Virus record (IMG/VR): IMGVR_UViG_2724679239_000009
Coordinates: 1 to 30,614 of that record
Direction: 5' to 3' (one strand)
Origin: a virus
Taxonomy: Duplodnaviria > Heunggongvirae > Uroviricota > Caudoviricetes
Length of the DNA stretch: 30,614 nt
Shown here: positions 27,065-29,545 of the stretch, piece by piece
How the letters are laid out: each line of letters opens with the position of its first letter
How positions within the stretch are numbered: the stretch's first letter is position 1
Position numbers and translations under genes: made by a program
The notes under the pieces: model-generated
Seen by the model: the letters and a program-made list of their open reading frames with translations, nothing else
What the model was told of the DNA's origin: nothing
Database searches by the model: none

Positions 27065-29545
27065 ATGAGTAAAGTCTTTATTTGCGCCGCCATTCCGGAC
27101 GAACAGGCAACAGCAGAAGGCGCTAAACCTGTGGCCACTGCCATTGAAGCAGGCGACGAACGCCGGGCAAGAGCCAAATTTAGCTGGTTATTTCTGGAAC
27201 AATACCCGGAAGCTCAGGACTGTGCTTATAAATTTCTTGTCTGCGAGGATAAACCCGGCATGGCCCGCCCTGCTCTCGATTCCTGGGATTCCGAATATAT
27301 GCAGGAAAACCGCTGGAATGAGGTGTCGGCTTCCTTTGTTCCGGTCGACCCTGAACCGGACGCAGAAATTGTTAACTTTAATCAGTTATCTGACGACAAG
27401 CGGGCTGCTGTCCTTGTCAGGTTCGGTACACATGAAAACATCACCGTGGATATGGTCATCAATGCAAGCGGGCTTCTCGGCGATGACGAGATGACGACTT
27501 TTGATGGACACCTCACTGAAGCAATTATCAGGACTAAAGAAATTAACGCCATGTATCCTGAGCGTCAGACTGAGTACATCAACGACGCCAGACGTGATTT
27601 AAAACCAACAGCCAAATGGCCCGACGTTCAGGCGTATTTTCTCGAACGTAAAAAACGCATGGAAAAGGAGCGCAAAGAAGGTGGAGCATATAATTCCGTC
27701 GTCGATCTTGCCCGCGCCAGAGTCAACCGGCAAGGCACTGAAAACTCTGCAGGAAAAACTGGCTCCGTAACTGCTGTCATTCGTCGCGAATACAGGCAGA
27801 CATGGAAAACACTGGATGAAGAACTGGCCTACGCTCTCTGGCCTGGTGATGTGGATGCCGGAAACATTGACGGCAGCATCCATCGCTGGGCAAAAAATGA
27901 AGTTATCGACAACGACCGCGAAGACTGGAAGCGTATCTCGGCATCAATGCGCAAACAGCCTGATGCCGTTCGCTACGACCGTCAGACTATTTTTGGCCTT
28001 GTCCGTGAGCGTCCGATCGACATTCACAAAGATCCCGTGGCGCTGAACAAATACATCACTGAATACCTGGCGACAAAGGGCGTGTTTGAGGATGAAGAAA
28101 CAGACCAGAGCACTGCTGATATTCTCCAGCCGTCAGCAGCACAAACTGATGCAGTGGAAACTGAAGTATCTGATACCCAAAAAAATGAAAGCGCGCTGGA
28201 AACTGAACCATCTGTAGAGCGTGAGGGGCCGTTCTACTTCCTCTTCACCGATAAGGATGGCGAAAAATATGGTCGTGCAAACAAACTTTCTGGTCTGAAT
28301 AAGGCGCTGGCTGCAGGGGCTACTGAAATCACGAAAGAAGAATATTTTGCCCGTAAAAACGGCACGTACTCAGGTTCACAACAAAATACTGGTGCATCTG
28401 ACACGACCGCACAACCAGAGCCGGTAAAAGTTACCGCTGACGAAGTAAACAAAATTATGCAGGCAGCCAATATCAGCCAGCCTGACGCCGATAAGTTGCT
28501 TGCTGCCTCTCGCGGAGAATTTGTTGCAGGGATTAGCGACCCGAATGATCCGAAATGGGTGAAGGGGATTGAAACCCGCGATTCTGTAAACCAGAACCAG
28601 CAAGAATCGGAACAGAACGACCAGAAAGCGGAACAAAACAGCCAAAATGCGTTACAAAACGAGCCAGAAACGAAACAACCTGAGCCAGTAGCGCAACAGG
28701 AACCGGAAAAAGTCTGCACCGCCTGCGGTCAGAGCGGTGGCGGCAACTGCCCTGATTGTGGCGCGGCGATGGGCGACGCAACATACCAGGAAACATTCGA
28801 TGAAGAGAATCAGGTTGAAGTTCAGGAAAATGATCCGGAGGAAATGGAAGGCGCTGAACATCCACACAAGGAGAATGCTGGCAGCGCTCAGGACCACGCC
28901 AGCGATAATGAAACTGGTGAGACGGCAGATCCCTTAATTGTGGTGAACGGTCATCACGTTATCACATCCACCAGCAGAGTGTGGTACCACCTGATGATCG
29001 ACCTTGAAACAATGGGAACCAACACCAATGCGCCCATCGTGGTTATTGGTGCGGTTTTCTTCGACCCACAAACAGGGGAAATCGGGCCAGTATTTTATAT
29101 CGTTATCAGTCTGACTGACGCAATGAATACAGGGGCTGCTCCTGACGGTGGAACCATCAAATGGTGGCTGAAGCAGTCCAGTGAAGCCAGAGCTGCCATT
29201 TTAACAGACCAGGTAAAACTGAAGGATGCCCTTTCGCGGTTTCGGGAGTTCATCAACGAATACTCAGATGAAAAATTCGTTCAGGTATGGGGTAATGGTG
29301 CAACTTTAGATAACGCAATTTTGCGCACCTCATACGAACGTCTGGACATCCCCTGCCCGTGGCGCTACCACAACGATCGCGATGTACGCACAATCGTTGA
29401 GCTGGGAAAAACAATCGACTTTGATGCTAGAACCGTTATTCCATTCGAAGGCGTTCGCCACAATGCACTGGATGACGCCCGTCACCAGGCAAAATACGTT
29501 TCAGCAATCTGGCAAAAACTGATCCCGAATCCGGTTGATTTTTAA
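27065..29545 (+). CDS. RecE-like large protein with zinc ribbon and C-terminal DnaQ-type (DEDDh) 3-prime to 5-prime exonuclease domain
   Basis: Middle segment KLLAASRGEFVAGISDPNDPKWVKGIETRD resembles a RecE segment I recall. Cys4 ribbon CTACGQSGGGNCPDCG. C-terminal MIDLETMG, WGNGATLDNAIL and RHNALDDARHQ form the DEDDh triad. Confidence 0.7.
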   Translation: MSKVFICAAIPDEQATAEGAKPVATAIEAGDERRARAKFSWLFLEQYPEAQDCAYKFLVCEDKPGMARPALDSWDSEYMQENRWNEVSASFVPVDPEPDAEIVNFNQLSDDKRAAVLVRFGTHENITVDMVINASGLLGDDEMTTFDGHLTEAIIRTKEINAMYPERQTEYINDARRDLKPTAKWPDVQAYFLERKKRMEKERKEGGAYNSVVDLARARVNRQGTENSAGKTGSVTAVIRREYRQTWKTLDEELAYALWPGDVDAGNIDGSIHRWAKNEVIDNDREDWKRISASMRKQPDAVRYDRQTIFGLVRERPIDIHKDPVALNKYITEYLATKGVFEDEETDQSTADILQPSAAQTDAVETEVSDTQKNESALETEPSVEREGPFYFLFTDKDGEKYGRANKLSGLNKALAAGATEITKEEYFARKNGTYSGSQQNTGASDTTAQPEPVKVTADEVNKIMQAANISQPDADKLLAASRGEFVAGISDPNDPKWVKGIETRDSVNQNQQESEQNDQKAEQNSQNALQNEPETKQPEPVAQQEPEKVCTACGQSGGGNCPDCGAAMGDATYQETFDEENQVEVQENDPEEMEGAEHPHKENAGSAQDHASDNETGETADPLIVVNGHHVITSTSRVWYHLMIDLETMGTNTNAPIVVIGAVFFDPQTGEIGPVFYIVISLTDAMNTGAAPDGGTIKWWLKQSSEARAAILTDQVKLKDALSRFREFINEYSDEKFVQVWGNGATLDNAILRTSYERLDIPCPWRYHNDRDVRTIVELGKTIDFDARTVIPFEGVRHNALDDARHQAKYVSAIWQKLIPNPVDF

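Follow-up and report, generated by a model that had tools for sequence, protein, structure and literature searches.

What does a RecE-like protein do when it carries a nuclease of another family, with the opposite polarity, and has no annealing protein as a partner? The question is raised by a gene near the right end of the window, the stretch of 30,614 nucleotides of a caudoviricete genome that was analyzed here (positions 1 to 30,614 of IMG/VR record IMGVR_UViG_2724679239_000009). The open reading frame (ORF) occupies positions 27065 to 29545 of the plus strand, starts with ATG, is intact, and encodes 826 amino acids (aa). An earlier note, made from the sequence alone, had described its product as a RecE-like protein with a DnaQ-type 3′-5′ exonuclease in place of the usual RecE nuclease and had read this arrangement as a domain swap of unknown function. 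The protein consists of a YdfE-type head, a RecE-type middle and K region, and a C-terminal DEDDh exonuclease domain, and, to judge from its sequence, it is most likely a tethered 3′-end DNA exonuclease. It is not a RecET-type recombinase, because its resection polarity is wrong for producing 3′ tails and because the annealing protein has been lost with the PDDEXK head.

The C-terminal domain (aa 642 to 826; positions 28988 to 29542, like all features of the gene on the plus strand) matches Pfam family PF16473 (Rv2179c-like) at aa 642 to 816, with an E value of 3.9e-68 (229.1 bits against a gathering cutoff of 27; profile positions 2 to 177 of 177), and the domain search thus identifies it as a DEDDh exonuclease, as the earlier note had proposed on the basis of the three motifs. 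The five catalytic residues, which are D646 and E648 of Exo I (codons 29000-29002 and 29006-29008), D749 of Exo II (29309-29311), and H799 and D804 of the Exo III motif H-x4-D (29459-29461 and 29474-29476), do not vary in an alignment that includes T4 DexA and stand-alone homologs. The AlphaFold2 model of aa 636 to 820 has a predicted local distance difference test (pLDDT) score of ~90. In a Foldseek search with this model, which has an RNase H-like DEDD fold, the best PDB match is T4 DexA (8KEL), with an E value of 2.3e-11 and a template modeling (TM) score of 0.66 to 0.73. DexA is also the sole significant PDB match by sequence (E value of 1.7e-8), and Rv2179c itself was not detected in the PDB by sequence or with a small profile. 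DexA (PDB 8KEL/8KEN) is a 3′-5′ exodeoxyribonuclease of the same Pfam family and shares all of the DEDDh residues with the query domain, to which it is 28 to 29% identical. However, it comes from a lytic phage, stands alone with 227 aa, and has extra loops and no RecE-type scaffold.

Ahead of the nuclease, the protein follows the same plan as RecE of the K-12 Rac prophage, with a head, a middle region, a K motif, a Cys4 ribbon, an acidic linker, and a C-terminal nuclease. In a BLASTP comparison, aa 262 to 626 align with RecE residues 278 to 592 (E value of 1e-64). Within this range, aa 474 to 626 are 76% identical to RecE residues 457 to 592 (103 of 136 positions), a block that spans the K motif, the Cys4 ribbon, and the acidic tract, and the other segments of the query are ~20% identical to RecE in a global alignment. 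The NCBIfam exoVIII model PRK09709 matches aa 222 to 626 (profile positions 246 to 603 of 877) with 281.7 bits, and its equivalog cutoff of 1,269 bits is not reached. The match is far under the cutoff, and the resemblance to RecE is confined to the middle and K region. The architecture is not that of a characterized member of the RecE family. The RecE match described in the earlier note stands for the middle and K region; the head is of the YdfE type.

The modules of this scaffold can be placed individually. The helical M domain (aa 245 to 340; 27797 to 28084; pLDDT of >94) lies within the part of the BLASTP alignment that covers RecE residues 278 to 360, and a module map of representatives of 50%-identity clusters reveals that it is common to RecE-family proteins with either head type. 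The same map places the S domain, a small β-hairpin/helix unit (aa 385 to 435; 28217 to 28369; pLDDT of ~95), in some relatives only. The K motif (DKLLAASRGEFVAGISDPNDPKWVKGI; aa 474 to 500; 28484 to 28564) opens the block that is 76% identical to Rac RecE and is also found directly before the DEDDh domain in short proteins (P0086) and before the RecE nuclease (phrog_412). The zinc ribbon, with the pattern CxxC-x7-CxxC (C551, C554, C562, and C565; 28715 to 28759), retains four cysteines that are also kept in RecE and in the homologs, and its AlphaFold2 confidence is low without metal (~52). The acidic low-complexity linkers that the earlier note had recognized are predicted to be disordered (pLDDT of <50) and have net charges of -12 (aa 341 to 384), -8 (aa 501 to 548), and -16 (aa 569 to 641; 28769 to 28987). 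No packing of the K motif and zinc ribbon on the nuclease is seen in the AlphaFold2 model, in which confidence for this arrangement is low.

The last of these linkers contains the junction. Similarity to Rac RecE ends at the peptide ADPLIV (aa 621 to 626, RecE residue 592), just ahead of each nuclease domain. At this position, Rac RecE has a PDDEXK (RecB-like) 5′-3′ nuclease (residues ~600 to 866; PF12684), whereas the query has a DEDDh 3′-5′ nuclease. A Pfam scan at an E value of ≤1 gave only PF16473 and PF00929 in the query, and PF12684, which the same scan finds in Rac RecE, was not among the matches.

The head is also unlike that of Rac RecE, in which the Exonuc_VIII domain PF06630 is found; the Pfam scan finds this domain in the relative P0262 as well and does not find it in the query. 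Instead, aa 1 to 256 (up to nucleotide 27832) are 66% identical to residues 1 to 256 of the product of ydfE, the pseudogene (b1577) of the K-12 Qin prophage to which the earlier note had pointed. This homology extends past the folded core of the head, the N1 domain (aa 1 to 205; 27065 to 27679; pLDDT of >94). The Pfam families YdfE_N and YdfE_C are annotated on the head in near-identical homologs (precomputed annotations from a newer Pfam release), and aa 1 to 220 had no match in the Pfam and NCBIfam scans, which lacked these newer families. No informative structural relative was found for the N1 model. K-12 YdfE corresponds to the first 256 aa of the query's family and lies in the same operon, but, because the gene is cut by IS2, the RecE-like middle and the exonuclease are missing from it.

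The N-terminal 470 aa define a narrow family, with 183 clusters at 50% identity among 1.8 billion representatives. In the module map, the long relatives carry either a YdfE-type or an Exonuc_VIII head, the shared middle, and a C terminus with a DEDDh domain, a PDDEXK domain, or neither. All four combinations of the two heads with the two nucleases occur, and together with the abrupt end of the RecE similarity ahead of the nuclease, this confirms the domain swap suggested earlier. Rac RecE, with an Exonuc_VIII head and a PDDEXK nuclease, has a translationally coupled RecT, and the gene for P0251, with a YdfE head and a PDDEXK nuclease, overlaps with the RecT gene that comes after it (PF03837; E value of 2e-36). 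P0262, with an Exonuc_VIII head and a DEDDh nuclease, has an integrase directly downstream, and no annealing protein was found at the inspected DEDDh loci with either head type. The annealing protein follows the nuclease type and not the scaffold, as seen at the two PDDEXK-type loci examined (Rac and P0251).

A third group of relatives lacks both nucleases. These proteins (P0246, P0252, P0255, P0260, P0267, P0269, and others) are 590 to 800 aa long and consist of a YdfE head and the middle domains, followed by 250 to 350 C-terminal aa in which Pfam finds nothing and which resemble neither nuclease. They may carry a third effector domain at this end, and their probable counterparts are the "RecE-2" proteins, nuclease-less RecE relatives that Zheng et al. 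reported in a survey of lambdoid phages (PMC12315714). Conversely, the nuclease also exists without the scaffold. Stand-alone DEDDh proteins of 185 to 190 aa, with ~60% identity, take the corresponding place immediately upstream of xis-int in unrelated prophages, among them those of Salmonella, and in the Citrobacter phage phiNP, and the Yersinia phage PY54 has a DEDDh gene together with a separate recombination exonuclease. In Salmonella prophages (L006:4743-5852), genes for DndB-like (PF14072), DUF2303, and YfdP-family proteins precede the stand-alone DEDDh gene; the Salmonella early-left gene set differs from that of the window and has the same exonuclease-xis-int ending. Zheng et al. also described sporadic DnaQ-type nuclease genes located very near int in lambdoid phages, outside the recombination (Rec) modules (PMC12315714). 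Both of their observations match the pattern seen here, but the two features are not described there as fused in one polypeptide, and their roles are left open.

Comparisons of the gene among the window copy, phage Evi, and Escherichia coli strain 1437 indicate that the fusion is maintained. Pairwise ratios of nonsynonymous to synonymous substitution rates (dN/dS; Nei-Gojobori method) are 0.04 to 0.27 across every folded module, with 0.26 to 0.27 for N1, 0.11 for M, 0.04 for S, 0.07 to 0.11 for the K motif, and 0.17 to 0.18 at a dS of ~1 for the DEDDh domain, and 0.27 to 0.36 for the whole gene. Intact ORFs are kept at a dS of ~1. The folded modules are under purifying selection, which indicates a functional gene. 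The window copy differs from that of Evi by a dS of 0.95 in the head but of 0.03 in the nuclease, and between Evi and strain 1437 this pattern is reversed; because dS changes so abruptly along the gene, recombination breakpoints must lie within it. The gene is thus an intragenic mosaic (window positions 27065 to 29545 compared with L002:8001-10481 and L014:2501-4972), with breakpoints roughly at the linkers.

The alternative that an accidental deletion fused a remnant of recE to a neighboring DEDDh gene, leaving a decaying relic with no selected function, might draw on the truncation of K-12 ydfE to a pseudogene, on a frameshifted copy in a Shiga toxin 2a (Stx2a) phage, and on the many partial database entries. 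It is rejected on the dN/dS values, and the invariance of all five catalytic residues, the recurrence of the same architecture with a different head in P0262, and near-full-length copies in 2,111 genomes make it hardly credible. In a megablast search, a copy at ≥80% coverage was found in these 2,111 of 5,426 complete E. coli genomes (~39%), with up to nine matching places per genome. The gene is also present in isolated phages (Evi and mEp460 variants) and in PPompW prophages within records of Stx2a-converting phages. The family is not a new kind, since databases list it and the literature has anticipated it in part. PHROG 2082, named "exonuclease," matches the protein from end to end (residues 1 to 826 against 1 to 823 of 823; 1,532.9 bits), PGAP names a 99%-identical copy "exonuclease" or "3′-5′ exonuclease," and homologs are annotated with YdfE_N, YdfE_C, and Rv2179c-like domains.

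The genomic setting is that of a lambdoid E. coli prophage. Along most of its length, the window shares 99% identity with the EPSSH018 prophage adjoining yccA; its late genes are encoded by the minus strand, and its right end holds the immunity and early-left regions. The exonuclease gene is the last of a Qin-type leftward operon. The gene order is a DicA-like repressor, DUF1391, a 128-aa ORF, a DicF-like RNA, dicB, DUF1482, the exonuclease gene, the excisionase, and the integrase, and this layout matches the K-12 Qin order dicA-ydfABC-dicF-dicB-ydfD-ydfE-int. The operon is headed by a DicA/cI-like helix-turn-helix (HTH) repressor (24955 to 25362, plus strand; PHROG transcriptional repressor and regulator families), as in the dicA layout of Qin. 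The DicF-like RNA (26372 to 26421, plus strand) scores 43.5 bits in Rfam (E value of 3e-8), under the gathering score of 48, and lies upstream of dicB as it does in Qin. On the same strand, dicB lies within 26491 to 26784 (Pfam DicB; E value of 2e-38) and the DUF1482/ydfD-like gene at 26727 to 26984 (Pfam; E value of 4e-23). An STnc100-like match (39 bits, below gathering) covers the start of dicB (26419 to 26628). Membership of the exonuclease gene in the operon is suggested by this conserved layout and by a promoter scan, weak evidence in itself, in which no plus-strand promoter-like site was found next to the gene. The next gene, read as xis-like in the earlier note, encodes an excisionase (29612 to 29863, plus strand; phrog_1266; E value of 6.5e-23; DUF4224 in PGAP), and it is followed by a tyrosine integrase gene (29832 to 30614, plus strand) that is cut by the window end and was assigned from the ORF call and the annotation of the near-identical prophage.

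The statement that neither recT nor bet accompanies the gene was borne out. No RecT, Red-beta, Erf, or Rad52-type protein was identified when the 19 ORFs between 16 and 30 kb were scanned against PHROG, and the PGAP annotation of the 99%-identical prophage includes no annealing protein. No Gam-type protein was found in PHROG scans of the early region, where a RusA resolvase is the only other recombination function. With no annealing protein, and with a position abutting xis-int that is excluded from the lambdoid Rec modules as defined by Zheng et al. (PMC12315714), the gene falls outside such a module.

The substrate was considered in comparison with DexA and its relatives. In the T4 DexA structure, W152 and D169 were proposed to be readers of DNA modified with 5-hydroxymethylcytosine (5hmC), and W152 stacks on 5hmC (Kang et al. 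2025; PMC12153337). The query residue that aligns with W152 is H769 (codon 29369 to 29371), and the position is anchored by the invariant sequence N-x-R-D-[VI]-R-T that follows. Among 168 unique domain sequences, position 769 ranks first of 175 in entropy (2.77 bits), with Y, W, C, H, T, S, and other residues, and its neighbors (W766 and N770/D773/R775/T776) are near invariant. The long fused forms have C, Y, or H here and seldom W. The column that aligns with D169, which is T783 in the query (codon 29411 to 29413), ranks eighth of 175 in variability, and the alignment is weak in this stretch. From these sequence patterns, position 769 fits a specificity-determining site.

The E. coli-encoded DexA homolog EcD provides the second comparison. 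EcD digests T4 DNA but leaves unmodified DNA intact, and its expression from a plasmid protected cells against T4 (PMC12153337). Unlike the fused query, it is a short stand-alone protein that begins at Exo motif I (MIDTET..., derived from the primer). EcD was not found among the 120 best homologs of the query domain, and the 23-mer derived from its 3′ primer had no exact match in viral or genome contigs, so it was compared by its published features; a homolog in phage ZCEC13 was considered as a candidate and rejected as not being EcD. The Asp involved in tetramer formation (D90 of DexA), which is Ala in EcD, is retained in the query as D721 in a moderately reliable part of the alignment. The published list of DexA homologs includes VUF53858.1, the 826-aa phage Evi copy, and the fusion to a RecE scaffold is not discussed there (PMC12153337). 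The Evi protein is 96% identical to the query in the C-terminal domain by tblastn, and the genes share 93% DNA identity.

Taken together, we favor, with a probability of about 45%, the reading that the product of the gene is a functional early protein, modular in build, of a Qin/DLP12-like lambdoid prophage and serves as an accessory nuclease in nucleic-acid conflict. According to this proposal, a noncatalytic scaffold made up of the YdfE head, the RecE-shared middle, the K motif, and the Cys4 ribbon would bear a DexA-family DEDDh domain on a flexible acidic tether. The five-residue active site would use two-metal catalysis and remove nucleotides singly from free 3′ ends, most probably of DNA. 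DNA is the probable substrate because the closest characterized relative is a DNA exonuclease and because the scaffold comes from a DNA enzyme. The scaffold may supply the same targeting or partner binding that RecE receives from it. The gene would be transcribed as the last member of the dicF-dicB-ydfD operon before xis-int, and this position suggests expression upon derepression or infection. The enzyme could then degrade DNA with free 3′ ends that belongs to competitor phages, the host, or its immune systems, with a substrate preference that may be tuned at residue 769. A conflict role is favored because the stand-alone copies are independent near-int accessory genes, which sometimes sit beside complete recombination systems, because the positions that may read the substrate vary the most, and because one homolog, EcD, has a reported antiphage effect. 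A core recombination role for the gene is less likely.

Several observations weigh against this proposal. The protein is not a listed defense protein, since PADLOC gives only a weak and generic match to a Cas-associated DEDDh protein (E value of 3.5e-4), and the DicA-type repressor upstream makes the gene likely to be silent in a stable lysogen, which is a poor fit to a defense gene. The gene also shares the scaffold of RecE and its place in the genome, and the prophage is rich in Chi and lacks a Rec module, which argues for a recombination-related role. Many relatives lack a nuclease, and it may be that the scaffold has the main function and that the nuclease is secondary. The next-best fold matches after DexA are the RNA enzymes Orn, REXO2, and RNase T, and PF16473 is named after the exoribonuclease Rv2179c. 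The high entropy at position 769 could equally reflect a tolerant surface position, and the equivalents of DexA W152 and D169 are His and Thr. In addition, no published functional test of the fused protein or of ydfE was found in the literature. The function is nevertheless less open than the earlier note had assumed, since DexA and EcD, which belong to the same Pfam family, were characterized in 2025 as DNA exonucleases (PMC12153337).

The recombination-related role can be stated as a helper function that replaces RecE/RecT, in which 3′-5′ trimming or blunting of the 3′ tails of linear phage DNA would let the host RecBCD load, meet Chi, and start RecA-dependent recombination and concatemer formation. 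The gene occupies the recE-recT position of Rac, a RusA resolvase is present, and the head genes resemble those of HK97 and are accompanied by an HNH/P27-type terminase set. Such phages have 3′-protruding cohesive ends, and RecBCD requires nearly blunt ends. The window contains 10 Chi sites (GCTGGTGG), compared with 1.08 expected from shuffles; seven are on the minus strand, and the positions include 454 to 461, 633 to 640, 11655 to 11662, 17460 to 17467, and 28968 to 28975, the last within the exonuclease gene itself. With neither an annealing protein nor a Gam-type protein found, the Chi-rich window fits the class of lambdoid phages with no Rec module and high Chi content, whose growth benefits from RecBCD (PMC12315714). 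However, DnaQ-like 3′-5′ nucleases usually inhibit homologous recombination, and the near-int copies are excluded from Rec modules and often lie beside complete ones (PMC12315714). In PY54, a recombination exonuclease and the DEDDh gene are both present. A hypervariable residue at a putative substrate-reading position is also unexpected for a housekeeping end trimmer. We consider this helper role doubtful, although it retains an appreciable chance of being correct. An action on RNA, as a 3′-5′ exoribonuclease or a nanoRNase like Rv2179c and Orn, directed at host or phage RNA or at linear oligonucleotide signals of defense systems, is improbable. It would agree with the description of PF16473 as a 3′-5′ exoribonuclease domain, with a weak NCBIfam oligoribonuclease match, with the second-ranking fold matches, and with the label "3′-5′ exoribonuclease" that NCBI often gives to homologs. 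Yet these database names are transferred from the Pfam family and not from tests, the nearest characterized relative by both sequence and fold acts on DNA, and the scaffold is common to a DNA recombination nuclease.

Two further readings keep the DNA substrate and the conflict and differ in how specific the enzyme would be. A strict HREX exclusion nuclease would, like EcD, spare unmodified DNA and digest the cytosine-modified DNA (5hmC or other) of T-even-like phages and would thereby protect the cell as a lysogen or upon induction. Membership in the DexA and EcD family, the listing of the Evi copy among the DexA homologs, the digestion of T4 DNA and protection of cells by EcD (PMC12153337), and the up to nine matching places per genome all speak for it, and the variability of the W152- and D169-equivalent positions would be consistent with alleles that read different modifications. 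The signature residues nonetheless differ, with His in place of Trp at 769, an Asp at 721 where EcD has Ala, and, in the weakly aligned stretch, a Thr in place of Asp or Glu at 783. The identity to DexA is low, the gene lies within a repressor-controlled early operon, and the EcD result comes from plasmid expression in a single study. Such strict specificity is therefore unlikely. More speculatively, the RecE-type N-terminal scaffold could be a delivery platform for swappable nucleases, with the DEDDh form acting as an interphage weapon whose 769/783 pocket diversifies to recognize the various DNA modifications of competing phages; only a small chance is given to this reading. The accessory conflict nuclease remains our preferred explanation.

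Other features were noted elsewhere in the window. A low-GC block at ~18.9 to 23 kb (GC content of 0.40 to 0.45) holds a gene for a SIR2-like protein of 343 aa (21342 to 22373, minus strand; PF13289; E value of 1e-5; no PHROG match) and its neighbors, which encode a 216-aa unassigned protein (19999 to 20649) and a 368-aa protein with HTH and M78/ImmA-IrrE peptidase domains (18915 to 20021). From its sequence, the SIR2-like gene looks like prophage cargo, possibly for antiphage defense. The cargo block also contains a sok antitoxin RNA (20968 to 21139, minus strand; Rfam RF01794; 107.5 bits), which marks a hok/sok-type toxin-antitoxin locus. Genes for tRNA-Gly(UCC) (15610 to 15684, minus strand) and tRNA-Thr(UGU) (15688 to 15763, minus strand) are flanked by the Q antiterminator gene on one side and by the lysis genes on the other.

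Domain shuffling of this kind is ordinary in phages, and a surprising mechanism is not yet demonstrated; if the protein is merely an accessory end-trimming nuclease, the locus is a neat case of such shuffling and nothing beyond. If the reading as a delivery platform and weapon is true, it would give a function to a very common orphan gene, which roughly 4 in 10 E. coli genomes contain, and to the long-unexplained N-terminal region of RecE. If the DexA and EcD precedent extends to this protein, many E. coli lysogens would have a nuclease that influences the range of phages able to grow on them, which would be relevant to phage therapy and to the biology of Stx phages. No known function is as yet given in the literature for the N-terminal region of RecE (PMC11611040), and this region matters in recombineering because full-length RecE favors linear-linear recombination. 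The family amounts to a natural experiment on RecE, in which the same scaffold occurs with nucleases of opposite polarity or with none and an annealing partner is seen only with PDDEXK. Because the three forms (PDDEXK, DEDDh, and none) share this scaffold, the function of the RecE N-terminal region becomes testable.

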